Below, piece after piece: positions 2,189 to 53,387 of a stretch of DNA of 64,000 bases. This stretch comes from Escherichia phage vB_EcoM_KAW1E185. The notes beneath the pieces are model-generated. The model worked only from the letters and a program-made list of their open reading frames with translations. It was not told the DNA's origin and searched no databases. The stretch is taken from sequence record NC_054922.1; one strand, written 5' to 3'. The position numbers were made by a program, and so were the translations under genes. Position 1 is the stretch's first letter. Every line of letters begins with the position of its first letter.

Positions 2189-2392
2189 TTAATTCATATT
2201 GCGTTTAATAACTTCAGCAACTTCTAGTAGTTCGTCTTTAGTTGCGGTGTCGGATTGAATTTTATCTCTAATATCTTTAAAGCGGTTTTTAAATTCTTCG
2301 GCTTCTCCCATATCGAAAAAGCGTTGAATGATTCTATATTCTCGATGAACTGCTTTATCAAAAAGTTCTAAATTTACTTTATATGATTTCAT
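2189..2392 (-). CDS. rIIA.1: rIIA.1-like small protein (67 aa)
   Basis: 67-aa ORF immediately upstream of rIIA in transcription order; position matches T4 rIIA.1. Confidence 0.5.
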
Positions 2393-2417
2393 TCCAATAT
2401 CCTCATTTGCCCAATTA

Positions 2418-2447
2418 ATTATACCACATCCTTGTGGTAAAGTAAAC
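2418..2447 (-). promoter_or_regulatory. T4-type early promoter (-35 GTTTAC, 18-bp spacer, -10 TATAAT)
   Basis: plus strand shows gtaaac at 2442-2447 and attata at 2418-2423; sits upstream of rIIA.1. Confidence 0.55.
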
Positions 2448-4267
2448 TACTGGCTCATCCATTCTTTGCGAAGGTCAGCATTATCTCCCATGAGCATTTC
2501 AAAAAGCTCTTTCCAGTTCTCAGGAAGTTTAACAACATCATATACTGGATTTTGAATCATCTCACGATATTCAGATTTTTCCAAAGAGCCAAGTCCTTTA
2601 ATATAACGGATGCTATGTTTAGGTAGAGCATCTTTGGCACTCTCATATTCAGCGACTGTATAAAACCATTCTTGTTTTTTACCGACCTGAGCGATGATTA
2701 CAGGAGTTTTGACAAAGCGAATTCGTCCTTGCTCAAACAGTTCTGGCCAATTACTAAAAAATCCAAGAAGAGAAGGATAAATGCTTCCTAGACCATCATG
2801 GTCAGCATCAGTCATAATAGCAATATTATGATAATTCAAGTTTTCAGCTTTTTCACCAAGAACTAATCCAGTGATTGCGCAAATATCAAATAGTTCTTTG
2901 TTTTTAAGCATATCAGCATATGACATACCCCAACTGTTGAGAACTTTACCACGCAATGGATAACCACCATGAAGTTCTTTATCACGAACATCAATAAGAT
3001 ATCCGATAGCAGAATCACCCTCAGTCAAGAAAAGAGTAGTATCAGCATCTTTACCGCAAAGATTCGCTTTGATATGTTTATGAACTTTAGCTTTAGAAGC
3101 CTTTTTAGCTGCTTTAGTTTCAGCTGCTTTTTCTGCTGCCAATTTACGAGCTAGTGCAGCTTCAATAATTGGCATCAGAATTGCTTCATTATTTAGAATA
3201 GCGCGTGAAATCTTTTTAGCGTCAAGTTGAATATGACTACGGATTTCACCAAATGGAGAAGTCAAACGCTCTTTAGTTTGAGAATCAAATCGCATGTTTT
3301 TCATATCACGGACAAACATAACGATAGTCAAACATTCTTTGACACGTGCTTTAGTTACATCAATTTTGAACTTACGTTTGATTTGTGGAATAAGGTCTTC
3401 ACAAATATCATCCATAACACAGTCAATGTGATGGCCACCATTCTTAGTGTGAATGTTATTCACATAAGTTAATTGGCGAAATCCATCCGGTGAACGACCA
3501 ACCGCAATAGAACAATTTTCTTGTTCTTGAACAATAGCATGTTCATCATACTGTCGTGCATATTTCTTAAAATTGCCCTGAACCTTTTTACCATTAAAGG
3601 TAAATTGAATATCAGGATAAACTACTGCAAGTGTCTGGAGACGATCCAGTGTAATGTCAAGATAAACTTGGGACAGCTCATTAGTTTCAAATGACATAAA
3701 ATCTGGAATGAAAGTAACACGAGTTCCTTTCCATTTTCCAGGAATAGTTTCCCAGGATTTATTTTCCATGCCATTTGAACAACGAACTACAATATTATTT
3801 TGACCATCGCCAGTTTCACCGACAAACATCACAGAAAAAATGTTAGTTAAACTAGAACCAACACCATTCATACCACCGGTGACACGTTCTTTATCATCAC
3901 CAAAGTTACCACCTGCTTTTGGAATAGTCCATGCAGCAACAGGACCAGGAATTTCTTCACCGGTAGGTGTTTTAACCATCGCTTGTGGAATACCACGACC
4001 GTTATCTTCAACTGTTACTTGATTGTTTTTGATAGTAACATTAATTTTATTTGCGAATTTAAACTTAGTACGAATACCTTCATCTACTGAGTTATCGATA
4101 ATTTCATCAATAAGCTTAACAAGACCAGGTACATACTGAACACTTTCCCATTTACCAAACAGAAAGCGCTCATGCATTTCATTAGCAGAAGAGCCAATAT
4201 ACATGCCGCTACGCTTTTTGATATGTTCAATATCGCTCAGAATTTTAATTTCATTCTTAATCATCAC
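2447..4267 (-). CDS. 39: DNA topoisomerase II large (ATPase) subunit, continuous gene 39 including the part that is gene 60 in T4
   Basis: 606-aa ORF; GyrB-like N-terminus and TOPRIM-like DADHDG near the C-terminus; uninterrupted reading frame. Confidence 0.85.
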   Translation of the reverse strand: MMIKNEIKILSDIEHIKKRSGMYIGSSANEMHERFLFGKWESVQYVPGLVKLIDEIIDNSVDEGIRTKFKFANKINVTIKNNQVTVEDNGRGIPQAMVKTPTGEEIPGPVAAWTIPKAGGNFGDDKERVTGGMNGVGSSLTNIFSVMFVGETGDGQNNIVVRCSNGMENKSWETIPGKWKGTRVTFIPDFMSFETNELSQVYLDITLDRLQTLAVVYPDIQFTFNGKKVQGNFKKYARQYDEHAIVQEQENCSIAVGRSPDGFRQLTYVNNIHTKNGGHHIDCVMDDICEDLIPQIKRKFKIDVTKARVKECLTIVMFVRDMKNMRFDSQTKERLTSPFGEIRSHIQLDAKKISRAILNNEAILMPIIEAALARKLAAEKAAETKAAKKASKAKVHKHIKANLCGKDADTTLFLTEGDSAIGYLIDVRDKELHGGYPLRGKVLNSWGMSYADMLKNKELFDICAITGLVLGEKAENLNYHNIAIMTDADHDGLGSIYPSLLGFFSNWPELFEQGRIRFVKTPVIIAQVGKKQEWFYTVAEYESAKDALPKHSIRYIKGLGSLEKSEYREMIQNPVYDVVKLPENWKELFEMLMGDNADLRKEWMSQ

Positions 4268-5806: not shown

Positions 5807-6088
5807 TTAATTGAACAGTGGAGCGATGCGTTTCAGAAGAGTAGCAGCACCTTTGGCAAATTTTACATCATGAAAAACAGTTTCTTCTTCCGTTACAACA
5901 CGAGCTTTAATGTTTTCACAATCCCAATTTTTGCGAACAATCTTCAAAAGCTGCAGTAAATCTTTACATTCAGCAATATCGATAACACATCCACGAGAAT
6001 CTTCCATTATCGCACGATAACCGTAAGCCATACCATAATCGTTAAAAGATTGCTCGATGATAATTAAGTTTTCCATTTTATTCTCCAA
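5807..6088 (-). CDS. hypothetical protein (93 aa)
   Basis: ORF; promoter-like region upstream. Confidence 0.4.
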   Translation of the reverse strand: MENKMENLIIIEQSFNDYGMAYGYRAIMEDSRGCVIDIAECKDLLQLLKIVRKNWDCENIKARVVTEEETVFHDVKFAKGAATLLKRIAPLFN

Positions 6089-6175
6089 GTTGTTTTCTGT
6101 ATCAGTAGTTGATATTGATATAGTACCATAATCAACTACTGATGTATATAGTTTTATGAAAAAAAAATTTAAACT

Positions 6176-6667
6176 TTATGCATAGCGAGCTTTACTGTAG
6201 TGTTTAATCCAACTTTCAGGAATGACTTTGTATGTTCCTAAAAATACCGCGTTGTATAACTTAACGCCATCTTCTACCCATTGATCAGTAATGTATGCAC
6301 ACATAGCGCGAGTACGGTTAACAACACCTTCCTCACCTTCAGTAAATTCAAACTCATAAGGAGCAACGAACTTGATAGCTTGACCGAGTTTCCACTTAAA
6401 GTCTACACCTACATGCGAAGTATCAATCGTTTCAATTCCTTTAGCGGGAACAGCTTTCAAAAACGCAGGCTCAAGAAATTTCCATCGAACATAACCAAAC
6501 TGAGGTTTAGACATTCCATCTTTAGGAATGATACGCACTTTTACTTCAGAATCTTCATCTTTAACACCATGTTTAAGCTGAATGCTTACGACTTCAACCA
6601 ATTTTCCTGCTGCTTTAGAACGGGATTTATCAGATACACGAGCAATTTCACCGATATTAATATTCAT
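6176..6667 (-). CDS. motB: MotB-like protein (163 aa)
   Basis: size and position match T4 motB; C-terminus related to the neighbouring 145-aa ORF. Confidence 0.45.
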   Translation of the reverse strand: MNINIGEIARVSDKSRSKAAGKLVEVVSIQLKHGVKDEDSEVKVRIIPKDGMSKPQFGYVRWKFLEPAFLKAVPAKGIETIDTSHVGVDFKWKLGQAIKFVAPYEFEFTEGEEGVVNRTRAMCAYITDQWVEDGVKLYNAVFLGTYKVIPESWIKHYSKARYA

Positions 6668-6711
6668 AATTATCTCTCACTTGTTAAAAAGATTTTATAC
6701 TCCGCAGGACC

Positions 6712-6741
6712 ATTATACTCTGGTCCCAAGAGTTTGTAAAC
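6712..6741 (-). promoter_or_regulatory. T4-type early promoter
   Basis: gtaaac 6736-6741 and attata 6712-6717 on plus strand; 18-bp spacer; upstream of motB. Confidence 0.55.
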
Positions 6742-7178
6742 TAGCTTACACGAACATTAATCACTGCGCTGCGAGGAACTACAGAGTACTCTCCAGCATG
6801 AACTACGTTCAGAAGTTCAACACCATCTTCAATCCACTGATCAGTCACCCATCCACCCACAGGATTCGCGAATGGACGACGAATATAAACTGCCTTACAC
6901 AGCAGATCAGTTGGATCTTCAGGTTTTTCAATTTCTGTCAATAGACTAAAATCTTTTTCATAAATAATAAGCGGTGATACCATTCCATAATAGTTTCTAA
7001 TTTCAATATACATCATACCGATAAGAATTCCGCTATTAACACTAATAACAGTAAAAGGATATCCGCCAGTTAAACCAAGAAGTTCACAAAACTTATTATG
7101 AGCTGTATTAGACAGTACCGAAAAATTCTTAATTTCATCAAATTTTTTCAATTGATAAACAGCATTATTTTTAATCAT
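6741..7178 (-). CDS. MotB-family paralog (145 aa)
   Basis: C-terminal VTDQWIEDGVELLNVVHAGEYSVVP resembles ITDQWVEDGVKLYNAVFLGTYKVIP of the 163-aa neighbour. Confidence 0.45.
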   Translation of the reverse strand: MIKNNAVYQLKKFDEIKNFSVLSNTAHNKFCELLGLTGGYPFTVISVNSGILIGMMYIEIRNYYGMVSPLIIYEKDFSLLTEIEKPEDPTDLLCKAVYIRRPFANPVGGWVTDQWIEDGVELLNVVHAGEYSVVPRSAVINVRVS

Positions 7179-9171: not shown

Positions 9172-10491
9172 TCACACATAAAACACATCATAACGACCAC
9201 GTGTTACACCAACATAAAGAAGCTGCTGAGCTAGTTCAGCATCTGCATAATGAATACAAGGCGTATAAATGAAAGCACGGTCTACAGACATACCCTGAGC
9301 TTTATGGAATGTTGATGCAGGAAGTGCTTTCACTTTACTGAACTGCGATTTAGCATCCCAAAAATCACTCCATGGAGCTTTTCCGCCTTTATTCCAATTT
9401 TTATAAGTTTCTGCCGTTTTACCTAAAAATAGGTTAAACTTATATAGCTCTTCATCAGATGAAATTATTTTAATCTTTTCACGATAATATTCATCATCGC
9501 CATAAGTTTCTACTGTTAAATCCCAATGACGAATTAGATATTCTCCAGGAACACCACGAGCTTTAACAAATGTTGATGTATACTCTGCTTCTATAATACG
9601 AACTAATTGTCCGTTATTAAAAATAATTTCTGATACCGGTTTTCCGTCAATTTTATACGTTTTAATTAACGGTTCTTGCATTACAATAATTTCACCGACA
9701 ATAAAATCTTTATCAGTTTCAAAAATCTTTTTACGAATAATGCTATTTAACTTGTCAACAGATTTATTCGTAAATGCCATTACGCGATTTTCAAACAAAT
9801 CATCTAATGATTTGACGATTGAAAAATAATTTACCATAAAATCGCGTAAAGCGGTATCACCAGTAAATCCACGTACTCCATGCCCGTCAACAACTTTATC
9901 ATAAATCCACTTACCGTTACGAACGTCAGTAGCTACATCAATAATAGGAGCATTACTGCGTTTAACTTCAGTGAGTTCACACTGATAAAAATCTTTGTGT
10001 GTAAAGAATGGACTGATATAAGCAGTATTTTCTCCTGGATCAACAGGTCTAATTTGCTTATTATCACCTATTCCAATTATAGTACACCAAGGTGGAATAG
10101 TTGAAAGCAGAATTTTAAATAGCTTTCTATCATACATTGACACTTCGTCGCAGATTAATACCCTGCATTTAGCTAAATCTGGTACTTCCTTCTGTTCAAA
10201 AAGAACGTTTTCTTCATACGTAACTGGGTTAATTTTAAGAATACTGTGAATAGTACTCGCTTCTTTCCCCGACAGTTTTGAAAGAATCTTTTTAGCTGCA
10301 TGTGTAGGAGCTGCCAAAATGATACCAGTTTCGCCCGTAGATATTAAAGCTTCAATGATGAACTTAGTAAGAGTAGTCTTACCAGTACCAGCAGGTCCAT
10401 TAATAGTTACATGATGTTTCTTTTCTTTAATAGCCCTCATAACGATGTTAAAGGCATTTTTCTGGCCTTCAGTCAAATCATCAAATGTCAT
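9172..10491 (-). CDS. dda: Dda DNA helicase (SF1B)
   Basis: 439 aa as in T4 Dda; Walker A GPAGTGKTT. Confidence 0.9.
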   Translation of the reverse strand: MTFDDLTEGQKNAFNIVMRAIKEKKHHVTINGPAGTGKTTLTKFIIEALISTGETGIILAAPTHAAKKILSKLSGKEASTIHSILKINPVTYEENVLFEQKEVPDLAKCRVLICDEVSMYDRKLFKILLSTIPPWCTIIGIGDNKQIRPVDPGENTAYISPFFTHKDFYQCELTEVKRSNAPIIDVATDVRNGKWIYDKVVDGHGVRGFTGDTALRDFMVNYFSIVKSLDDLFENRVMAFTNKSVDKLNSIIRKKIFETDKDFIVGEIIVMQEPLIKTYKIDGKPVSEIIFNNGQLVRIIEAEYTSTFVKARGVPGEYLIRHWDLTVETYGDDEYYREKIKIISSDEELYKFNLFLGKTAETYKNWNKGGKAPWSDFWDAKSQFSKVKALPASTFHKAQGMSVDRAFIYTPCIHYADAELAQQLLYVGVTRGRYDVFYV

Positions 10492-15766: not shown

Positions 15767-16284
15767 TAATAACCTCGGTCTTGACGGGCGAAATTTTCGG
15801 CATTTTTCAGATAATAAAGTTTAAAGATTTCTTCAGCTGACATTCCAAGAGCAATAAATTTATTCATGAAAAAGTGAAATTGGTCAATCAGTTCAAATTT
15901 AATTTCAAGCTGATCTTCGGGAGATAAATCTTGAATTTTCTTGGATTGCATTTCAGAATAACGTTTCTTCCAAGGTTTCCATACAGCAGAAGCTTCTTTT
16001 TCACCATTACTCATACCACCAAGAGAAGTATATAGTTCGCGAGTTTCATCTGCGATATAATCGTCTTGGTTTCGCAACCAAGCAAGAACTTCTCCTGCGG
16101 TTTCAAGTGAATCAGGATGACGATTTGTTTCTGGTTTATCATTAGCCAAACGAATCTGTAAATGCCGCTGCATATCAAGCATAACCTGCAGTGGGTCAAT
16201 ATTGTGCATAATATTCTCAGCATATGCACGATTTGCTTTATCAACACCTTCGATCAAATGAGCACATTCATTAAAGTAAGCCAT
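15766..16284 (-). CDS. 56: dCTP pyrophosphatase (gene 56, MazG-like)
   Basis: 172 aa from the internal ATG with AAGGA Shine-Dalgarno (T4 gp56 is 171 aa); the ORF-track N-terminal extension looks non-coding. Confidence 0.7.
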   Translation of the reverse strand: MAYFNECAHLIEGVDKANRAYAENIMHNIDPLQVMLDMQRHLQIRLANDKPETNRHPDSLETAGEVLAWLRNQDDYIADETRELYTSLGGMSNGEKEASAVWKPWKKRYSEMQSKKIQDLSPEDQLEIKFELIDQFHFFMNKFIALGMSAEEIFKLYYLKNAENFARQDRGY

Positions 16285-16355
16285 TATTTTTCCTTTCAAT
16301 TCATGGGTTAGTAGATTAATTATACAATAAATATATAAAGCAATAAGGAGGACAT

Positions 16356-16556
16356 ATGGTACAAAAATTAATGGCACTTGTTGATGCCATAAAAGGTAAT
16401 AAAAAACGTATAGCTTTTACTATTTCTGCTATGGTAGGAATTTTACTCTGGAACTTTATTTTATCACCTGTTGCAATTGCACATGGTATTAATATTCCAG
16501 TAGTTACTCTTGATACATTCGTAGATTTAGCATTTGCTTTAGTTGGGTTAATTTAA
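16356..16556 (+). CDS. candidate plus-strand small hydrophobic protein (66 aa)
   Basis: ATG preceded by AAGGAGGA Shine-Dalgarno; product has two hydrophobic segments; sits between gene 56 and the gene 61 stop. Confidence 0.3.
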   Translation: MVQKLMALVDAIKGNKKRIAFTISAMVGILLWNFILSPVAIAHGINIPVVTLDTFVDLAFALVGLI

Positions 16557-17581
16557 GTCTTAGCATATTTAGATAGCCGCATTTTAGCCATCAACCCCTG
16601 GGCAATATTATTTTTCATATATTCCATAATTTGTTCAGGGGTTGCACCTTCCTTTCTAATCATATCATTAACATCTTTTGATTTCCAGGGAGATTTATCC
16701 CAAAACATAACCCTTTCTCCTGCATCAACTAATTTAGTCATTCGCTTGATAGTGTCAGGGTGACGAGGTTCATTATCTAAAACCCACACTCGTCTATCTT
16801 TAAATGGAACAACTTCTAGGTCTAATTGACCACCCGTAATAGCTATACCATTTTCAATAAAAAGCGAATCTATAGGTCCTTCTAGAACATATACATCACC
16901 ATCTTTAACTCGTTCGACTCCATATATTTTTGTTGCCTCAGGATAAGCTTTAATGGTGATATATTTTTGAGGAGCATCTTTCTTTAATGCACGTCCTTGA
17001 AAAGACTCAGCTTTTCCGTTAGCATTATAAATTGGAATAACAAGACGAGGCTCAGAAATTTCCTTTTTGTATGTTCCTGGTGCTATGCTATTAACTAATT
17101 TAGGCCATTCGGTTGTAAACCAAAGATATTTCCATTTATCCTTTGGAATACAACGAGCTTTTACATATTTTATAATTGGATGGTCTTCCGCCAGTTTATC
17201 TAATCTAACACATGACGGAAGAGATTTAATTATTTTCTTCTCAGGTCGCTTAGGAAGTTCTTTAGGTTTTTCTACTGGACGACTTTTACCTTTTTCTTTT
17301 CTTATTTCAAAGATATACTCACGATATAAATCAGGTTCAAACTCCTTTAAATATATTCCGATTGGTGCATGATAGTTACAGTTATAACAATGAATATTTC
17401 CTTCATTATTATCACCATAATACCATCCACGGGCTTTATTTTGGTCGGTTTTTGAATCTCCGCAAACAGGGCATCTAAACCGCAATTTAAAAGTTGAACT
17501 ATTATTTACTTGTGTGAATTTAGGTAAATGAGCTAATGCACGATACGCAAACTCATTATCAATCCAAGGTATTGATGACAT
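16553..17581 (-). CDS. 61: DNA primase (gene 61)
   Basis: 342 aa as in T4 gp61; zinc ribbon CPVCGD...CYNC; TOPRIM EGPIDSLF. Confidence 0.9.
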   Translation of the reverse strand: MSSIPWIDNEFAYRALAHLPKFTQVNNSSTFKLRFRCPVCGDSKTDQNKARGWYYGDNNEGNIHCYNCNYHAPIGIYLKEFEPDLYREYIFEIRKEKGKSRPVEKPKELPKRPEKKIIKSLPSCVRLDKLAEDHPIIKYVKARCIPKDKWKYLWFTTEWPKLVNSIAPGTYKKEISEPRLVIPIYNANGKAESFQGRALKKDAPQKYITIKAYPEATKIYGVERVKDGDVYVLEGPIDSLFIENGIAITGGQLDLEVVPFKDRRVWVLDNEPRHPDTIKRMTKLVDAGERVMFWDKSPWKSKDVNDMIRKEGATPEQIMEYMKNNIAQGLMAKMRLSKYAKT

Positions 17582-45238: not shown

Positions 45239-45628
45239 TTAATCCAAAATATTATTAGGCATTGGTTGAACACTCACAAGTTCTTTAAAGAACTCAGTAG
45301 AGTCAGGCAATTTAACCATTTCCGGAGCATGCTTATTAAATTTATGTTTACAATGACGGCATTTATATTCAAGCTCTGGTTTACGCCAGTTAATCAATTG
45401 AACTTGTTCAGTACCGCATTCAGGGCAATTAGGAACGTTTTTAGAAGCTCTTTCACGTCGTTCAACCATAGCCATAATAGCATCCCATGCTGGAGGTTTA
45501 AAATCTAAATCGTTGCAGCCGTGAATCTTTCCACGCATTTCCAGATCGTCTTCTTCACCAGCCATAATAATTTTAATTAGACTAGAATTACTTGAAGCTG
45601 CAATGTCTTCTAATAGACGCTTTTTCAT
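45239..45628 (-). CDS. zinc-ribbon protein (129 aa)
   Basis: CPECG...CRHC motif. Confidence 0.45.
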
Positions 45629-46551
45629 TTCAATACCCCAATAGCATTACGTAAACCATTTGCTTTGGCGGTTAAAGCCTTAAGAACTTTAGTATGCTCT
45701 TCAATTTGTTTTTCAACTTCAATCAAACGAGCATTGAGATATTCGCGTTCTTCTTTCATAGTATCATTTCCATGATTGGATTTTGGTGTAGGTTTAAATT
45801 CACTAGGGTCCTTTAATTTAATAACAAATTTAGTTTCAAACAGTGAAAGACCATAATTCGTATTATCATCAAAGGATTTGACTACATCCATATCAGATAA
45901 TAACACGCGCAAATTATAAGCCAAAGAACTAATAGTTTCATTGTGTTTATTAGCTTCGCGTGGTTTCATATACGGAAGATTTTTATATATCTCATGCGGA
46001 GCGCAAACGATAATTGACAATTCAAATTGTCCATTCTGGGACGATGGAATGAATTTAGCCGTAACCCAGTCTTTTACATTCACATTAATAGTACGGTTAT
46101 CACCATGACAAAACAGTCTACGAGAATGCTTAAAAAGCATATTCACGTTATTATTGAATTCGTGTGAAAATTCACTAGCAAATTTTTCTTTACTATCTTT
46201 AGAAAACCATTCTTCTAAATAAGTTCTTTTCACGTCGTTAATAATATTAAATGTAACAACACTAGCATTTGATACATTAGTCTTAATGTAGCTTGGATAC
46301 ATAAATTTTTTAACATTATTAACAGCTATCACAGAAGATAATAATCGGGAACGTTTGAACCACTCGAGCAAAGAACCAAGAGAATGTGAATACGCATTTT
46401 GTGTATCTTTACAAATATGGTTTTCCCATCCAATATAGTCTAAAAAATCACGAAGAATATTATTGATTACTGCTCTGTGTCCTATCTGATAATTACGATG
46501 TTTAGTAATAAGACTGTCAAAATAATCAATATAATGTTTACGAGTTTTCAT
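45625..46551 (-). CDS. coiled-coil paralog family member 1 (308 aa)
   Basis: starts MKTRKHY; central SRLLSSV motif; C-terminal heptad-rich region. Confidence 0.5.
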   Translation of the reverse strand: MKTRKHYIDYFDSLITKHRNYQIGHRAVINNILRDFLDYIGWENHICKDTQNAYSHSLGSLLEWFKRSRLLSSVIAVNNVKKFMYPSYIKTNVSNASVVTFNIINDVKRTYLEEWFSKDSKEKFASEFSHEFNNNVNMLFKHSRRLFCHGDNRTINVNVKDWVTAKFIPSSQNGQFELSIIVCAPHEIYKNLPYMKPREANKHNETISSLAYNLRVLLSDMDVVKSFDDNTNYGLSLFETKFVIKLKDPSEFKPTPKSNHGNDTMKEEREYLNARLIEVEKQIEEHTKVLKALTAKANGLRNAIGVLK

Positions 46552-46605
46552 GTTCTTCTCACTTGGTTAATGATTTATACTCCGAGCCATCCTTGGCTTT
46601 AAATT

Positions 46606-47607
46606 TTACTTAATTAACTGTAAAGCCTGTTCTAAACGATCAAGACGATTAACAGATTCTTCCCAAATCCTTTTAGCCTGCTCATATTCTTTCTGCGCTT
46701 TATTAGAAATTTCTAGAACTTCTTTATAAGCTTTTTCTAATGCAATAACTTCTGGACGAATTTCTACCGGTTCAGGTGAATCATCAAGATTATCCATTAG
46801 TTCCTCAAGGGTAGTTTCTTCTTTAGGAGTATTCACAATTTCATCACATTTTTGTTGGTAAATTTCTTTATCAGTAGGTGAATAAGCACATTTCACTTCA
46901 CGAAGACTAACTACAATTTTATATCCTTCCCAACCGCATATATTTTTAAAAGGATATGTATGAATATTTTCTACTGTTTCCATACAAAGTAATGCGGTCT
47001 CTAATTGACGAGTTATAGTGCTAGCAATTGAGAAAAATTTATTAATATTCTTTTGGCTAGTTTCTGGTGTAAAAAATCCATAATTCACAAAAATAGCTAC
47101 TTTATTTTTATCAAGTTCATATTCTTTTATGATAATCATATCAGAAGCCAAAGGATGAATTTGACGATAATCGCCATAACATAATTTAGAAGCTGATTTT
47201 AAAATTTGCTTTTTGAAAAGTCTGAAATTACTGATCCAACGACGAGTAAAAATATTCTCAGGGTCTTCTTTATTATTAAGATGATAAGAATTAACATCAC
47301 CGAACCAATTATATCCTACTACATCTTTGGTTCGTTTAATTTCTTTCCCAAAATTACCAAGAATATCCCGATTAACCAAATATGAAAGAAGACGAGACTC
47401 TTTAAAGGTTTTCTTGATAACATCTTTATCTACACGGCTAGAAATTTTACGAATTTCATGAATAAATTTAGCAGAAGAAACAATACTTGCATCAACACTA
47501 TTGAGCCACTGATTGATAATAGAAAGAACGCTATTTTGGCCAAACATCGGTATAGCTTTATCATCAATAACTCTATTGAATGATTTGATATATTCGTTAC
47601 GAGTCAT
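46606..47607 (-). CDS. coiled-coil paralog family member 2 (333 aa from internal ATG)
   Basis: ORF track 46606..47637; ATG at 47607 has TGAGGAG Shine-Dalgarno; starts MTRNEY; motif SRLLSYL. Confidence 0.5.
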   Translation of the reverse strand: MTRNEYIKSFNRVIDDKAIPMFGQNSVLSIINQWLNSVDASIVSSAKFIHEIRKISSRVDKDVIKKTFKESRLLSYLVNRDILGNFGKEIKRTKDVVGYNWFGDVNSYHLNNKEDPENIFTRRWISNFRLFKKQILKSASKLCYGDYRQIHPLASDMIIIKEYELDKNKVAIFVNYGFFTPETSQKNINKFFSIASTITRQLETALLCMETVENIHTYPFKNICGWEGYKIVVSLREVKCAYSPTDKEIYQQKCDEIVNTPKEETTLEELMDNLDDSPEPVEIRPEVIALEKAYKEVLEISNKAQKEYEQAKRIWEESVNRLDRLEQALQLIK

Positions 47608-47635
47608 AATAATCTCCTCAGTAGAAAGTAAGAAC

Positions 47636-47665
47636 ATTATACCACATCCTTGTGGCGAAGTAAAC
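47636..47665 (-). promoter_or_regulatory. T4-type early promoter
   Basis: gtaaac 47660-47665; -10 TATAAT; 18-bp spacer. Confidence 0.55.
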
Positions 47666-48669
47666 TAGTTTAGTGCATTTAGTGCGTTGTTCAATTTAGA
47701 ACGTTGCTTCGTGAGATTTTTTACTTTTTCTTGAGCTTTTTCTAGCATCTTTTCAGCTTCTAACACTTCATTAATTGCTTTAACGAGTTCATCATCTACT
47801 GCCTTGATAGACTTCTCAATCGCATCCGCGTGCCATTTTTCAACAGGTTTAAGACTCGGATTTTCAACAGGAAGAAAATTCACTTTATTGAATTTCCATG
47901 CATCATTATTACCTGAACTATACATCCAAAATTTAGGATCGTTTGATGAGTAATTAGTTTGGGGTTCAGGTTTTTTCTCTTGTGTAACTTCGTCCTTTCT
48001 CAAAAAATCATATTTAAATGAAACAATCATGTCAAGTTCATATGTTGTCGTATCTAATTTAAATCGTTCGAAATGCTGCGAAATCTTAGATTGAACAGCA
48101 GCAACAACATCCATATACTTAAATGCTTCTGTCAGCTGTGATTTAAGACATTCACAAATTGAAAGAGAATTTTTTGTATTAGGTTTAAAGCTAATTCGTG
48201 CAGTTCTATTATTTTCTTTTAATGGTCTTACTTCCATCTGAAGAGTATAACCATCAAATTTCAGATTCTTTAAGTTAATATCAGAGCCTTTTAATCGACT
48301 AGCAGTAGACAAAATTTGCTTTAATTGTTTACGAAATAGAGCAATAAATCTCCATTCAAGACGATAATGATTTGGATTAAAAAATCCTGTTGATAAATCA
48401 ACCTTACTCTGACCAACGCCTTGAACAAATAGAGGATTTTTATAATCAATAGTTTTACAGAAATCGGTGAGCTGCTCACGAGCAGTCATTTGTGTAATAT
48501 ATCCCGCTTTACTAAAATGACGTAACCATTCACTGCTATTCATATACTTAAAGTGAATGGAACTATTAACTCTATCAGGGTCTAAATTATTTTGGCACAA
48601 AAATGTCATAACATCACGAGTATAGCTGGCATTACGAACCATATCTTCAATTTGAGAACGAGTTTTCAT
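47665..48669 (-). CDS. coiled-coil paralog family member 3 (334 aa)
   Basis: starts MKTRSQ; C-terminal coiled coil. Confidence 0.5.
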   Translation of the reverse strand: MKTRSQIEDMVRNASYTRDVMTFLCQNNLDPDRVNSSIHFKYMNSSEWLRHFSKAGYITQMTAREQLTDFCKTIDYKNPLFVQGVGQSKVDLSTGFFNPNHYRLEWRFIALFRKQLKQILSTASRLKGSDINLKNLKFDGYTLQMEVRPLKENNRTARISFKPNTKNSLSICECLKSQLTEAFKYMDVVAAVQSKISQHFERFKLDTTTYELDMIVSFKYDFLRKDEVTQEKKPEPQTNYSSNDPKFWMYSSGNNDAWKFNKVNFLPVENPSLKPVEKWHADAIEKSIKAVDDELVKAINEVLEAEKMLEKAQEKVKNLTKQRSKLNNALNALN

Positions 48670-48677
48670 GGTGTTCC

Positions 48678-49586
48678 TTAAGATTTAAGTAAATCAACAA
48701 TTTTAATTAACTTTTCACGCTCAGATTTAGCTTTACTACTCAATCCAGATAGTCTGAAAATTTCATCATCATATTGTTGAATAGAAATATTCAGCTCTTC
48801 AATTTGCTTATTAAAATAATCAATTTGCTCAGAATGTTTTTCGTTACTACGAACTGGTACAGGTTTTGTAGGCAATTTAGTTGAACTGGATTCATCCGGG
48901 CGATAAATTAAAATACAACTTGAACCAATTGGACATTTTGCACCAGATGAATATTCTAATGTTCCGGCTTCTTTTAAAACTTCAAAAGCTAAACAGAGAT
49001 GATGCCCCATATTAACATAATCTGTAGAGCGAGCTCTGATATAATAATCATCGCCCCGAATACTAAATTTAAAGCATTTAAGGTCTTCTGTATTATTGGT
49101 CTTAAAAATCATTTGTTTATCTAGACCTTTAGCTAATCGAGCGCCTAATGCTAATAATCGTCGTTGATTTTCCCACAAATCTGCGATCATTTGGTCAAAT
49201 GATAATTTCGGCATTAGTCGACCGTAAAGATCATAGCCTTTATTATAATTGCGAAGAATTTCACTTGCATTAATACGAGACAATGCTCCAATTTTATTAA
49301 GGGCTTTCATAATGCGATTAGATAAACCCATTCCAGACCCGTTTGTTCGCTGTAAATGTTTTTCTAATCCAAATCCAATATCAACTTTAAACTTATCTAA
49401 AATTTCTGCATGAACATCTCTGTCAATAACATTCAAATCCAAAGTTGGGTTAAATCTATGAAAAAATTTATCTGGCTCTCCACGACGAAGTACAGTCCAT
49501 TCATTCAATTTTTTATTAACTAAAGATTTAATTACTGCATTGACATTATTAATTACTACTGACATATTTTCCTCACTCAATTTCAA
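48678..49586 (-). CDS. coiled-coil paralog family member 4 (302 aa)
   Basis: similar size and architecture; C-terminal coiled coil. Confidence 0.45.
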   Translation of the reverse strand: MKLSEENMSVVINNVNAVIKSLVNKKLNEWTVLRRGEPDKFFHRFNPTLDLNVIDRDVHAEILDKFKVDIGFGLEKHLQRTNGSGMGLSNRIMKALNKIGALSRINASEILRNYNKGYDLYGRLMPKLSFDQMIADLWENQRRLLALGARLAKGLDKQMIFKTNNTEDLKCFKFSIRGDDYYIRARSTDYVNMGHHLCLAFEVLKEAGTLEYSSGAKCPIGSSCILIYRPDESSSTKLPTKPVPVRSNEKHSEQIDYFNKQIEELNISIQQYDDEIFRLSGLSSKAKSEREKLIKIVDLLKS

Positions 49587-49980
49587 TTTTACTAAATACG
49601 CAGAATATGATGGAAAAGACTATATAAGCACCGCATACAGATTGAACTAATACCATTCCAAAGAACCAAACAATATTATCAAACAATGTCTGTTTTACGT
49701 CGAAAGGACGTAAACTTACAGTAATATTATCGCCTTTTTCTATTGATGAATACATCTCTGGGGAAATATATTCGCTAAATCTATAACCGTCTTTGAGTTC
49801 ATATACGGCAATAAACGATAAACTAGACCCCTTTCCTTGTGTTCCTGTAAAGGTATTAACTATAGTAACATCATAATCTTTATAATGCATATAATCATTA
49901 ATTGCGTAATAACCATATGCAATTACTATGCATAAACAACATATCAATAAATTCAATCTTTTAATTATCAACTGTTTCAT
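49573..49980 (-). CDS. membrane protein (135 aa)
   Basis: hydrophobic segments at both ends. Confidence 0.45.
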   Translation of the reverse strand: MKQLIIKRLNLLICCLCIVIAYGYYAINDYMHYKDYDVTIVNTFTGTQGKGSSLSFIAVYELKDGYRFSEYISPEMYSSIEKGDNITVSLRPFDVKQTLFDNIVWFFGMVLVQSVCGAYIVFSIIFCVFSKIEIE

Positions 49981-50035
49981 AATAATCTCAATTAAAAGGG
50001 CTTAGAACCATTATACCATCCTTGGTATAAAGCGG

Positions 50036-50563
50036 TTATGCGAGTACCGTCTTTAACCGTTCTTCAAATTTCCGAAGAGTGTTCTGGCGTTCAGCTCTTT
50101 GCTTTTTGTAAGTTTCAATACGCTCTGAAATGAGAGTGTATCGTTCATTTACTGATTCTTTCATAAAATCAGGAATTTCACGAGAAGCTTTAATCTCGTC
50201 AAATTTATCAATAACAGCTTGCTCTTCAGCAATTAAGTTATCATACATCAAAATATCTTTCTTGATGAACTCAATATCTTCTTGAGTTACACGAGATAAT
50301 TTAGATGCTTTATCCTTTTTGTACTGTTCGTTAGTATCACGAGACCAGTGTAATGTACGATTTTTATTCGTATTCTTGTAAATTTCTACAATACCAATCT
50401 CATCGATAATAACGATCCAATTCCAACGGGATTTGTAAATTTGTCCTCCATCAACCGTGATTTCACCACCGATTGAGACATCATTAAAGAACTTGCTTTG
50501 AGCTTCAGATTTAAATTTACCATCATTGTAGTTTACCAAGTTGAAAATATCTTTAGCATTCAT
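50036..50563 (-). CDS. hypothetical protein with C-terminal coiled coil (175 aa)
   Basis: ORF track 50036..50623; ATG at 50563 has GGAGGA Shine-Dalgarno. Confidence 0.45.
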   Translation of the reverse strand: MNAKDIFNLVNYNDGKFKSEAQSKFFNDVSIGGEITVDGGQIYKSRWNWIVIIDEIGIVEIYKNTNKNRTLHWSRDTNEQYKKDKASKLSRVTQEDIEFIKKDILMYDNLIAEEQAVIDKFDEIKASREIPDFMKESVNERYTLISERIETYKKQRAERQNTLRKFEERLKTVLA

Positions 50564-50591
50564 TTTCTGTTCCTCCGTAGTTGATAGTTGT

Positions 50592-50621
50592 ATAATACCA
50601 CAGAGGAACAGTCTTGTAAAC
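50592..50621 (-). promoter_or_regulatory. T4-type early promoter
   Basis: gtaaac 50616-50621; -10 TATTAT; 18-bp spacer. Confidence 0.5.
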
Positions 50622-50623
50622 AA

Positions 50624-50926
50624 CTAAAAGAAACTTCTTTCACAATTTTTTCCACTGAACCAAGCGCTCACTGCTTTCTTAGTCTCAGGAGCAGTGTTAT
50701 CCATAAACCATTCAAAGGCAGCCTTTTTATGATTCTGGAGGGCTTCTCGGGCTTTAATCTGCTCACGGTCTATTAACACTAACATATGAGCCTTTCTTGT
50801 CACCAAGGGCTTCTTATGATTTTTTGAATACTCCCAATCATTTGTCCAACGCATTGTCGTTGCGAACTGAAATACTGCTTCTTTAATTTTAGTTTCGTAA
50901 ATTTCACGAGCCTTTGAGTATAACAT
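50624..50926 (-). CDS. hypothetical protein (about 100 aa)
   Basis: ORF track 50624..50938; GGAGG lies inside the first codons so a later ATG is the likelier start. Confidence 0.4.
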   Translation of the reverse strand: MLYSKAREIYETKIKEAVFQFATTMRWTNDWEYSKNHKKPLVTRKAHMLVLIDREQIKAREALQNHKKAAFEWFMDNTAPETKKAVSAWFSGKNCERSFF

Positions 50927-51027
50927 CATTACCTCCATTTACCAGTTTAATTCTAGTCATCTTTTTGATGGCAGTCCATATAATCTATTTCTGAACTGCC
51001 TTTTTGTCATAGAAGGCCTCTTATGAA

Positions 51028-51996
51028 TTATTTCAGAAGAGTAACCTCAGCGATTTCTTCCCAACCATTTTTGTCGGTCATAATAAAGTCAGCAAGATAA
51101 AGAGCAGTACGCAGTGAAACATTGCGTAAACGATTAACATTGACTTTCATCCATGATAATGCTTTATAAGTTTCTTCATCAGAAAGACCGCGCTTTTGCA
51201 TCATGTCAGTTGAAAGAATAACATCTTCAACCCTGACCATAATTTCTTCATTAGTGTGAACACCCAAATCCAAATAAACTGAGCGGGACACTAATGCTTG
51301 TAAATGTGGAGCAAGTTTAGTACCACGGTCTAATTCGCGGTCAATGTCAACGTTTGTGATAAAAACAATCGTTCCTTTAAATTCAAACTCACGCTCAATG
51401 CCTTTTTCTTCCAAGTAAGAAGATGCAGTGCTCCAGCAGACTTTACGGGTCTCTCCGGTGTCCAGAGCAGCTTTCAGAAGATTAAGAATGTCCATATCAG
51501 AGAAAACATCCACATCATCAATCAAAAGGACAGAATTCTCTTCACGATTATTCCAAAGCTGTTCATAAAGACCGATACCGGAGATTTTACCGTTAATGCT
51601 TTTATATTCAATGTATCCAATATCATTTGCTTTATTTAAAGCTTTATCTAAAGAATACGTTTTACCAATACCCGCCGCACCAGAGATAATTAATGAACGA
51701 ATATTTCCATTAATAATACCATTCGTCATCATTCCCATAACATTAAATCTTTTATTAATGCGGGTTTTCATATCTTCATACGATTCTTTAACTTCTTCAA
51801 CTTTTACACCATCATATGAAATGTCTGATTTGTAAACCCAAACACCGCGACGTTTACCGTCAATTTCAACAAAAACTTTACCATCTCCTTGTGCATCTAC
51901 CGGAGCATTATCTGGGAACCATTCGCCTAAGAGCTCAAAAGTTCCAGAGATTTCTTTACCGAAGTAGATACCCTTATTGATAGTTACAGTTTTCAT
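51028..51996 (-). CDS. P-loop (AAA+-like) ATPase with about 100-aa N-terminal domain (322 aa)
   Basis: Walker A GAAGIGKT, Walker B VLLIDDVD; AGGAG Shine-Dalgarno. Confidence 0.6.
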   Translation of the reverse strand: MKTVTINKGIYFGKEISGTFELLGEWFPDNAPVDAQGDGKVFVEIDGKRRGVWVYKSDISYDGVKVEEVKESYEDMKTRINKRFNVMGMMTNGIINGNIRSLIISGAAGIGKTYSLDKALNKANDIGYIEYKSINGKISGIGLYEQLWNNREENSVLLIDDVDVFSDMDILNLLKAALDTGETRKVCWSTASSYLEEKGIEREFEFKGTIVFITNVDIDRELDRGTKLAPHLQALVSRSVYLDLGVHTNEEIMVRVEDVILSTDMMQKRGLSDEETYKALSWMKVNVNRLRNVSLRTALYLADFIMTDKNGWEEIAEVTLLK

Positions 51997-52053
51997 TTTA
52001 TTCTCCTTTGATTTGATAGGACTACTATAACATAGTCCTATCAGTTTGTATAC

Positions 52054-52254
52054 TTATTTTGACATTTCTTCGATGTCACGACGATACCCGTCACGAACTT
52101 CACGAAGAGCTTCAAGGCCACACATAGGCTCGATACCAGTAATGTGAACTTGATTAATCTGATACTCTACATCTTCTAACTGAGCGAAAACATAACGACG
52201 TTCAGCTGCACACCCAGATTTAGCTTTACCGAAACGTTTATTCAAAGTAGTCAT
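52054..52254 (-). CDS. hypothetical protein (66 aa)
   Basis: ORF with early promoter upstream. Confidence 0.4.
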   Translation of the reverse strand: MTTLNKRFGKAKSGCAAERRYVFAQLEDVEYQINQVHITGIEPMCGLEALREVRDGYRRDIEEMSK

Positions 52255-52292
52255 TTTGTATCTCCAATTTACTCATTTGTTTTGATAGTTGT

Positions 52293-52322
52293 ATAATACC
52301 ATAAAGCTTTATGCTTGTAAAC
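52293..52322 (-). promoter_or_regulatory. T4-type early promoter
   Basis: gtaaac 52317-52322; -10 TATTAT; 18-bp spacer. Confidence 0.5.
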
Positions 52323-52353
52323 AGTTTTGTGAAAAAATTTTTGAAATAAAAAA

Positions 52354-52371
52354 GGGAGCCCGAAGGCTCCC
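52354..52371 (-). terminator. stem-loop after the nucleotidyltransferase gene
   Basis: gggagcc cgaa ggctccc, perfect 7-bp stem. Confidence 0.55.
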
Positions 52372-52373
52372 TA

Positions 52374-53387
52374 TCATTTATAATAACTTCGGTGGTTTTC
52401 AAGATAGACCTTCTCAAGGAAGTCATCCCAGAAACTCATGTCTACTGTTTTAGGCATACCGTTCTTAGAAGCTTCAGTAGATGCTGCTTCTACTTGATCG
52501 ACCACATCTTCCAAAAACTCTTGAACCGTTTTAAATGGATGTTTACCCAACTTCACGTCGAGAATAAATGGAGCATCTTGGAGTGGATAAACCAAGTCAC
52601 CAGTTTTGTAAATTTCCAATAGTTGGAGTCCACCACGGCAAGCATGACTCAGAGCTTTCCAGTCAATACCTTCATTGGCTTCGGCCTTACGAGCACGTTC
52701 ACCATATTCAGCATCTAATTTGTTCAGTGACTGCTTAAGCTCAATAAGAGAAAGCGTTGTCTGATATTTACGACCCAACACAGTGTAGAACGTTTGTGGG
52801 CCTGTTTTCTCATGATTATGGAACACCCATTCACAGAATTCGTTTTCTGGAAGACGATGCTTAATATCTTCAACTTTAGTGCGACGCTGCTTAATAGAAC
52901 CATCTTCTTGGTAATCAATCCACTGCTCAGGGATTTGATTAACTACTTTCAATACATCACGTAATGCAGCCAAACGAGAACCCTTGACACCGTATTTAGA
53001 AGCTTGCTTGCGGACATATCCTAAATAGGATTTCATGTTAGTCGTATAAAAACGAGAACGGTTGTCTTGAATAAACTTCCACACATCAGGCAAATCAGAT
53101 TTAACCACTAGTTCAGGTGGAGTGTGAAGCATATCCAATGCTACAGTTTCACCATCTGTTGCTAATTTAAAGAAATATTTAAGACTGTATAGTTCATGGT
53201 CAATATCATCTTTAGTGTTTTTAGATGATGTGTTGTTAGTGTTTTTACTCATGTGCTCTTTGACATTTCCGATAAGAATATCACGAGCAGGAGGAACAAA
53301 AATTTCTTTAAAATCTACATCAGATTCTGGAGTAGAAGTTCCATAAAGATGACTACCAAAATAGCTTTTCATTACTGTTTTCATCAT
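52374..53387 (-). CDS. predicted Pol-beta-superfamily nucleotidyltransferase (337 aa)
   Basis: N-terminal FGSHLYGTSTPESDVDF (G-S...D-x-D) and a downstream LDMLH acidic motif. Confidence 0.5.
   Translation of the reverse strand: MMKTVMKSYFGSHLYGTSTPESDVDFKEIFVPPARDILIGNVKEHMSKNTNNTSSKNTKDDIDHELYSLKYFFKLATDGETVALDMLHTPPELVVKSDLPDVWKFIQDNRSRFYTTNMKSYLGYVRKQASKYGVKGSRLAALRDVLKVVNQIPEQWIDYQEDGSIKQRRTKVEDIKHRLPENEFCEWVFHNHEKTGPQTFYTVLGRKYQTTLSLIELKQSLNKLDAEYGERARKAEANEGIDWKALSHACRGGLQLLEIYKTGDLVYPLQDAPFILDVKLGKHPFKTVQEFLEDVVDQVEAASTEASKNGMPKTVDMSFWDDFLEKVYLENHRSYYK

Follow-up and report, generated by a model that had tools for sequence, protein, structure and literature searches.

The 64,000-nucleotide stretch of Escherichia phage vB_EcoM_KAW1E185 (NC_054922.1) analysed here, which we refer to as the window, carries four consecutive minus-strand genes corresponding to T4 nrdC.3, nrdC.4, nrdC.5 and nrdC.6, and profile comparisons confirm their products as true but very distant paralogs. 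This four-way paralogy, which appears to be unreported in the literature searched, is well supported and joins a set of single-copy genes from other T4-like phages to the array in one superfamily. NrdC.3, NrdC.4 and NrdC.6 are thereby paralogous to NrdC.5, for which an activity against the host defence protein Dsr1 has been published, which makes them three candidate counter-defence proteins. We think it reasonably probable that the array represents a family of anti-defence binding proteins, oligomeric and non-enzymatic, that has expanded by tandem duplication of one early gene. The genes are known T4 open reading frames (ORFs), one of them with a published anti-defence function, and hence they do not amount to a new kind of system.

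An earlier note made from the letters of the sequence had proposed divergent tandem paralogs of low mutual identity, and had pointed to host-range or anti-defence functions for such arrays; both parts of that proposal are supported. Pairwise identity among the four proteins is at most 26%, and direct BLASTP detects NrdC.3 with NrdC.4 (E=0.003) and NrdC.3 with NrdC.5 (E=0.02), the remaining pairs being silent. Profile families for the four proteins, F3 to F6, were gathered from other T4-like genera by homology searches and from the loci of 16 annotated phages. Direct comparison of these families with hhalign gave a strong link between F3 and F4 (98.2%, E=5.5e-14) and one that is suggestive only between F4 and F5 (43%, E=2.4e-4, 232 colinear columns); F4-F6 and F5-F6 scored 17% and 1.3%, respectively, and NrdC.6 was not convincingly linked to any family in this way. 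The direct comparisons being too weak for NrdC.5 and NrdC.6, the link needed syntenic intermediates, and these were supplied by F7a, the syntenic single-copy family from other T4-like genera. F7a aligned with F4 at 95.2% (E=2.6e-8, 254 columns), with F5 at 98.5% (E=3e-15, 249 columns) and with F6 at 95.9% (E=5e-9, 201 columns), while as controls the families of nrdC.8 and of a 256-residue neighbour gave at most 0.5% and column-reversed profiles at most 1.9%. The links persist when the C-terminal 62 residues are removed (F7a-F4 94%, F7a-F5 70%, F7a-F6 78%, F3-F4 98%), and the similarity is therefore no coiled-coil artefact. Single sequences bridge the families as well. By BLASTP, the single-copy proteins of phages IME523 and PM2 match the NrdC.6 family over the central domain at E~1e-6, and Marfa gp080 matches NrdC.4 and NrdC.3 over ~280 residues (E 1e-4 to 4e-5) and the C-terminus of NrdC.5 (E=8e-7); IME523 gp085 is matched by both the F5 and the F6 hidden Markov models (HMMs) at ~1e-9.

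The four genes are indeed consecutive minus-strand ORFs, as the earlier note had it: nrdC.3 (45625-46551, 308 residues, 92% identical to T4 NrdC.3), nrdC.4 (46606-47607, 333 residues), nrdC.5 (47665-48669, 334 residues, a DUF7235 protein 90% identical to T4 NrdC.5) and nrdC.6 (48678-49565, 295 residues). Sizes of 302-334 residues had been given, and these are consistent with the first three products; the 302-residue reading of nrdC.6 uses an upstream TTG and was rejected in favour of the ATG at 49565, which has a GAGGAA Shine-Dalgarno sequence and agrees with the T4 annotation. For nrdC.4 we place the start at 47607 because a GAGGAG Shine-Dalgarno sequence precedes that ATG; a 343-residue reading from 47637 was rejected, as that ATG lies inside the -10 box of a promoter-like site. 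In the T4 reference AF158101.6 (locus 6001-6887), nrdC.6 is annotated with 275 residues and can be covered by tblastn only in two separate pieces, implying a frameshift close to the sequence for the C-terminal helix; the 295-residue gene is intact in T4 record OL964735, as it is in the window.

When the window proteins were aligned with family members in MAFFT, three motifs, a KP[VI] sequence and a terminal helix fell in register in all four. M1, F/L.K.G.LS...A..IL..F., contains the SRLLSSV and SRLLSYL strings and lies at residues 61-84 of NrdC.3 (46300-46371), 64-87 of NrdC.4, 48-71 of NrdC.5 and 85-108 of NrdC.6. M2, F..EF..N...iL..A[SR][KR]L..G.D, follows at residues 128-153 of NrdC.3 (46093-46170), 124-148 of NrdC.4 (47164-47238), 108-132 of NrdC.5 (48274-48348) and 126-150 of NrdC.6 (49116-49190), and is present in 13/13 of the distant full-length members recovered by exhaustive profile search. 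The weak central motif noticed previously is thus real, but it merged M1 and M2, which are distinct. M3, a helix motif of the form L...A[LF]..M[DE].V, occupies residues 210-227 of NrdC.3 (45871-45924), 198-215 of NrdC.4, 175-192 of NrdC.5 and 186-203 of NrdC.6. KP[VI] then leads into a terminal amphipathic helix ending L..L[KN], at residues 263-308 of NrdC.3 (45628-45765), 284-333 of NrdC.4 (46609-46758) and 277-334 of NrdC.5 (47668-47841), and as a helical hairpin at residues 241-295 of NrdC.6 (48681-48845). The coiled-coil-like character claimed for these segments is borne out by heptad periodicity in all four proteins, whose C-terminal ~60 residues have 11-15 of 18 a/d positions hydrophobic compared with 9-12 of 45 other positions, and by helices in the AlphaFold2 (AF2) models of NrdC.5 and NrdC.6.

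The model of NrdC.6 has a mean predicted local distance difference test score (pLDDT) of 78 and a predicted template-modelling score (pTM) of 0.65. From the N-terminus it runs through seven helices, a beta-beta-alpha-beta-beta module (165-221) and a disordered linker to a helical hairpin at the C-terminus (242-294). The NrdC.5 model is poor (pLDDT 45) because the underlying alignment is shallow, consisting mostly of sequences 85-94% identical, and it is confident only for the C-terminal helix at 275-333, a part for which pLDDT reaches 94 across models; at this low confidence its order of secondary-structure elements resembles that of NrdC.6. Taken with the motifs, the models point to a common layout in which an N-terminal helical domain bearing M1 and M2 would be followed by a small beta-beta-alpha-beta(-beta) module with M3, then by a variable disordered linker ending in KP[VI], and lastly by a heptad-rich C-terminal helix or hairpin. 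This C-terminal helix would probably drive oligomerisation. Foldseek searches of predicted viral structures with the NrdC.6 model returned its own family first and then proteins of 300-346 residues. These included the single-copy family proteins of IME523 (E=3.5e-7) and PM2 (E=2e-6), unclassified and uncharacterised proteins of Acinetobacter phages Acj61 and Acj9 and of phages Merlin and CBH8, and gp111 of Yersinia phage fHe-Yen9-01, a distant, weakly F5-like member. The N-terminal helical domain has no assignable fold, and we detected no relative of the superfamily with a solved structure. No column is invariant across the superfamily alignment, nor is there any invariant polar residue, and scans of Pfam, NCBIfam and PADLOC found no enzymatic domain, with NCBIfam and PADLOC yielding only sub-threshold chance matches such as BrxC on the coiled coil.

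The distribution of the family outside the window gives the paralogy a history. In several genera a single gene with a product of 309-337 residues lies directly upstream of nrdC.2, at the site of T4 nrdC.3; this is the case in Kanagawavirus (IME523, PEi20), Mosugukvirus (PM2), Marfavirus (Marfa), Jiaodavirus (PKO111, where the ORF is unannotated) and the Acinetobacter Lazarusvirus (Berthold). The unannotated ORF of Klebsiella phage PKO111 (NC_031095, locus 15996-16970) encodes a 324-residue superfamily member with the M2 motif FCSEFNANLRRILNRSICLLKGDDR and the C-terminal helix. Position beside nrdC.2 in the nrdC-nrdC.11 region is kept across the 15 loci examined around nrdC.3, nrdC.6 or nrdC.11 homologs, which span 10 genera, the exception being the Tegunavirus fHe-Yen9-01. 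That phage has two very distant members (locus 16382-17323 and 9459-10337); its gp111 lies between nrdC.11-like and nrdC.10-like genes, not beside nrdC.2, and its gp94 matches the F3, F5, F6 and F7a profiles. A copy-number comparison of the kind the earlier note had proposed shows variation from 1 to 4 across genera, and the order from nrdC.2 is always nrdC.3, nrdC.4, nrdC.5, nrdC.6, with lineage-specific losses. All four copies are found in T4, RB6, SG1, G2133 and the window; Dhakavirus IME08 and Gaprivervirus VR26 have nrdC.4, nrdC.5 and nrdC.6, Mosigvirus HX01 has nrdC.3, nrdC.5 and nrdC.6, ESCO47 has nrdC.3 and nrdC.6, and Pinarejo has lost nrdC.6 save for a 47-residue C-terminal remnant (locus 7001-7141). 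Given this conserved order with losses, the duplications predate Tequatrovirus, Mosigvirus, Dhakavirus and Gaprivervirus. On this reading the four genes arose long ago, by tandem duplication, from a single early gene in T4-like phages, whose ancestral form would survive as a single copy in phages of Enterobacter, Edwardsiella, Pectobacterium, Klebsiella and Acinetobacter. When 1.84 billion representative proteins were searched exhaustively by profile, only 30 clusters reached E<=1e-3, and the full-length novel clusters were on contigs of T4-like size, up to ~173 kb, so that the family is small and apparently confined to T4-like phages. Among further rearrangements, NrdC.6 of Shigella phage Sf25 (P0122) contains an internal tandem duplication of ~83 residues, bringing it to 378 residues in total. 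In P0120, nrdC.4 is deleted and nrdC.5 is fused to nrdC.3 out of register; we had considered this protein as an in-register chimera of paralogs and rejected that reading, as the deletion fusion is uninformative on homology.

Within Tequatrovirus, the genus to which the window belongs, the flanks are outpaced by the array, which evolves 3-10 times faster when judged by the ratio of non-synonymous to synonymous substitution rates (dN/dS). Among six Tequatroviruses, seven flanking genes show 98.6-99.7% identity and dN/dS of 0.02-0.07, compared with 76.8% (minimum 60%) and 0.33 for nrdC.3, 92.6% and 0.30 for nrdC.4, 91.5% and 0.20 for nrdC.5, and 96.6% and 0.10 for nrdC.6. Two nrdC.3 allele classes exist within the genus, at 92-99% and ~60% identity. 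The Pinarejo allele (locus 9287-10216), a case of a Mosigvirus-type allele in a Tequatrovirus, is 86% identical to that of Mosigvirus HX01 and 60% identical to that of T4, which suggests exchange of nrdC.3 between genera. Most of the variation falls at about residues 21-60 and in the segment that follows the beta module together with the linker, while across the genus the M1-M2-beta core (residues 61-180) and the terminal helix scarcely vary. This pattern would fit surface or loop diversification, and likewise relaxed constraint on disordered segments. The diversifying selection asserted in the earlier note is accordingly only partly upheld: dN/dS in the array does exceed that of the flanks, but with no value above 1 and the variation lying in loops and linker, such selection is suggested, short of demonstrated.

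Public databases keep these proteins apart. nrdC.3 and nrdC.4 match phrog_1435 (E=3e-100 and E=6e-168), with Pfam PF26897 (precomputed) on record for the nrdC.4 family only; nrdC.6 matches phrog_2257 (E=3e-153) and carries Pfam PF26899 (precomputed); and nrdC.5 belongs to PHROG 2351 and to DUF7235 (PF23882), which it matches over residues 1-334 with 391 bits (E=4.9e-117). Against the Pfam gathering score of 30 bits that sets DUF7235 membership, nrdC.3 reaches 10.6 bits with that HMM, over its C-terminus only, and nrdC.4 and nrdC.6 give no match, leaving nrdC.5 as the sole full-length member among the four. The window's nrdC.5 is thus an ortholog of T4 NrdC.5, with 90% identity, a full-length match and the same locus, whereas nrdC.3, nrdC.4 and nrdC.6 are distant paralogs of it that share the domain order and fall below the DUF7235 threshold; these three are in turn full-length members of PHROG 1435/PF26897 (NrdC.3, NrdC.4) and PHROG 2257/PF26899 (NrdC.6). 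Assignment to distinct known families had been named beforehand as an outcome that would speak against common ancestry. Three database families are indeed what one finds, yet profile alignments link them, and our analysis joins PHROG 1435, PHROG 2257 and DUF7235 in one superfamily. A second label needs correction. Many GenBank records call nrdC.3 to nrdC.11 (window 45625-53387) 'thioredoxin', which has evidently been propagated from the locus name nrdC.N: for the four proteins there is no thioredoxin or glutaredoxin match in Pfam or NCBIfam, and none contains CxxC.

The functional reading starts from NrdC.5. Srikant, Guegler and Laub (eLife 2022, PMC9391042) described a T4 clone with compensatory deletions that was unable to plate on ECOR17 or on MG1655 carrying ECOR17 dsr1, and restored plating on those Dsr1 cells by supplying T4 nrdC.5, which they call an early gene, in trans. 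Dsr1 is a SIR2 NADase whose sensor domain, common to Avs7, is triggered by the phage major capsid protein (2026 Nature, PMC13581612). The literature searched held no paper on how NrdC.5 works, nor any on what nrdC.3, nrdC.4 or nrdC.6 do. At 90% identity to its T4 counterpart, the window's NrdC.5 would be expected to keep the anti-Dsr1 activity. We propose that proteins of the family, made early in infection, would neutralise host immune proteins stoichiometrically, that NrdC.5 would do so with the Dsr1 SIR2-NADase, and that the other paralogs would have diverged to cover other variants or other defence systems; an anti-defence role for NrdC.3, NrdC.4 and NrdC.6 is what we infer from this. Stoichiometric binding is favoured by the lack of any invariant polar residue and of any enzymatic domain. 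Early expression is likewise favoured by the promoter consensus before nrdC.4, together with the early-gene label in the eLife study. We count fast evolution, allele classes and swaps, natural deletions, fusions and internal duplications as the signature of an arms race. The earlier note had put forward such arrays as candidate host-range, superinfection or anti-defence determinants, and the rescue by T4 nrdC.5, the fast evolution and the copy-number variation all support candidacy of the host-range or anti-defence kind.

Two known systems help to frame this proposal. DSAD1 of phage SPbeta is a direct protein inhibitor that binds DSR2, a sirtuin (SIR2-NADase) defence related to Dsr1. It is a phage protein of roughly similar size, and by likeness to the DSAD1-DSR2 pair NrdC.5 possibly acts in a similar manner, which would mean direct binding of the defence protein; no sequence or fold similarity to DSAD1, to Tad1/Tad2-type sponges or to other solved inhibitors was detectable. 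The T-even dmd-tifA-adfA 'anti-TA island' (TA, toxin-antitoxin) and the genes for the internal proteins IPI-IPIII are fast-evolving, non-essential anti-defence genes that lie in plastic regions. As with the array, close relatives differ in them; every one counters a specific host defence and in this way sets host range. These are unrelated small genes side by side, whereas nrdC.3-nrdC.6 are four genes for proteins of ~300 residues that come from a single ancestor and share one architecture, C-terminal coiled coil included.

A number of points weigh against a family of anti-defence binding proteins and need careful consideration. Only one of the four paralogs has an experimental phenotype, and its mechanism may be direct or indirect. 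Three of the four proteins are basic (pI, the isoelectric point, ~9.3), which would also suit nucleic-acid binding. The predicted oligomerisation draws on the heptad pattern and the helix models, and with the NrdC.5 prediction poor, four-way identity of fold depends on one good model and on sequence profiles. In terms of selection, dN/dS is below 1 in every array gene, relaxed constraint fits the mostly loop and linker variation within the genus equally well, and nrdC.6 comes close to ordinary genes in its conservation (96.6% identity, dN/dS 0.10).

Some of these points could be accommodated if the four were instead early proteins of host takeover or regulation, binding nucleic acid or host machinery, with NrdC.5 rescuing plating indirectly and without binding Dsr1; the route may, for example, run through an altered timing or amount of the capsid-protein trigger or through NAD+ economy. 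The basic character of three of the proteins and the helical N-terminal domain without an assignable fold would agree with this, as would the retention of a single copy at the same locus across distant T4-like genera, which resembles a housekeeping-like accessory function, and the eLife experiment itself demonstrates sufficiency in trans during infection, not physical interaction. However, the libraries scanned revealed no DNA- or RNA-binding domain, the genes are dispensable in the laboratory and have been lost in natural isolates such as Pinarejo and ESCO47, and fast evolution with allele swapping is typical of host-interaction genes and not of regulators of conserved machinery, so we regard this explanation as unlikely, if a serious one. 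It is also conceivable that NrdC.5 is the sole anti-defence protein and that NrdC.3, NrdC.4 and NrdC.6 are duplicates under relaxed constraint, functionless or redundant. A dN/dS that is raised yet below 1, with variation mainly in disordered segments, and the absence of individual paralogs from several lineages without obvious consequence are what one might expect in that case. Against it, hundreds of genomes keep the four ORFs intact, with at least 80% of the array covered in 460 records and a near-full-length nrdC.3 or nrdC.6 found in 650-686. Each family moreover keeps the strongly conserved core and terminal helix (residues 61-180 for the core), and neutral decay would not have left the paralogs distinct, as they have been since before Tequatrovirus, Mosigvirus, Dhakavirus and Gaprivervirus split; we give this explanation little credence.

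Finally, the four proteins might be unrelated and alike only in ending in a coiled coil. One could point to the insignificance of direct pairwise BLAST for most pairs, to the three separate families of Pfam and PHROGs and to the low direct F5-F6 score, but the F7a-mediated links stay strong without the C-terminal 62 residues while controls remain at or below 1.9%, and the colinear motifs and the Foldseek link agree with them. Chance resemblance is contradicted by the present evidence, and we consider it very improbable indeed. Taken together, we continue to favour anti-defence binding proteins of common descent.

A more elaborate version of that proposal, which we offer as speculation and regard as rather doubtful, is a modular 'inhibitor kit'. 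The conserved core and C-terminal coiled coil would allow homo-oligomers or mixed oligomers to form, while the variable N-terminal patch and linker would direct every copy at an immune protein of its own that senses capsid or depletes NAD; the targets may include Dsr1 variants, Avs7-type sensors and other SIR2 systems. If this were true, T4 would carry three more uncharacterised anti-defence proteins, and the family would represent a new fold of immune antagonist that has expanded specifically in phages of Escherichia and close relatives. The paralogy matters irrespective of this version. T4 is the best-studied phage, yet databases treat nrdC.3, nrdC.4 and nrdC.6 as unrelated to nrdC.5; if the paralogy is true, one can ask how a single scaffold is retargeted, and the conserved core with its two variable patches marks where chimeras could be made. 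The candidate counter-defence proteins are built on a fold without a solved relative, and the single-copy genes of Klebsiella, Enterobacter and Acinetobacter phages become candidates too, which bears on host-range choice of therapeutic T4-like phages. A widespread mis-annotation as thioredoxin is corrected at the same time.

The 4.36-kb stretch with the array shares 97.4% identity with Escherichia phage 303Ecol101PP and 90-99% with ~490 further records, and comparison with the annotated T4 genome identifies its five minus-strand ORFs as nrdC.3, nrdC.4, nrdC.5, nrdC.6 and nrdC.7. nrdC.2 and nrdC.8 flank the array within a plastic region bounded by gene 49 (endonuclease VII) and mobD. The description of this region as hyperplastic agrees with the variation in gene content among close Tequatroviruses: the interval between nrdC.9 and nrdC.11 differs among them (RB6 (L013) 2308-3027; L014/L015 1426-1969). 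Among the differences are an intron-like endonuclease gene, a DUF4031 gene and small ORFs, and they confirm the region as plastic.

A promoter scan found one site that is convincing by position and sequence, a T4 early-type promoter-like match directly upstream of nrdC.4 on the minus strand (47636-47664; GTTTACT, 17 nucleotides, TGgTATAAT). This consensus match scores 10/12 with an extended -10 TG and has the GAGGAG sequence and ATG of nrdC.4 downstream of it. Promoter-like sites are not enriched in the region, at 44 compared with 35±8 in shuffles. The region's best sigma-70 consensus match, TTGACA-17-TATGAT (11/12), lies on the coding strand inside the nrdC.5 coding sequence at 48007-48035, and may be a chance occurrence or an internal promoter.

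The small membrane protein said to follow the array is nrdC.7 (49573-49980, minus strand, 135 residues, phrog_2547). Hydropathy does support two transmembrane-like segments, at about residues 4-28 and 103-130, but on the coding strand the gene precedes the array, and its partnership with the array is not conserved. In ESCO47 and PM2 its homologs flank the array on the opposite side, and 8 other family-bearing loci lack them; we therefore rejected it on synteny as a partner gene or component of the array, and these comparisons indicate that it is an independent, mobile accessory gene of the same plastic region. nrdC.8 (50036-50563, 175 residues) also has a heptad-rich terminal helix and is highly conserved (98.9% identity, dN/dS 0.04); both it and the conserved 256-residue neighbour family were tried as superfamily members and rejected, with hhalign at or below 1.2%. 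On the other side, nrdC.2 (45239-45628) encodes 129 residues in the window and in Pinarejo compared with 104 in T4. The protein has a zinc-ribbon-like CxxC...CxxC motif, and the start of its gene and the end of nrdC.3 overlap. Further along the region, a strong hairpin terminator (52293-52372; a T-run preceded by an 8 bp stem in which 6 pairs are GC) lies downstream of nrdC.11, and directly past it is an early-promoter-like TTTACA-17-TATTAT sequence with an extended -10 TG.

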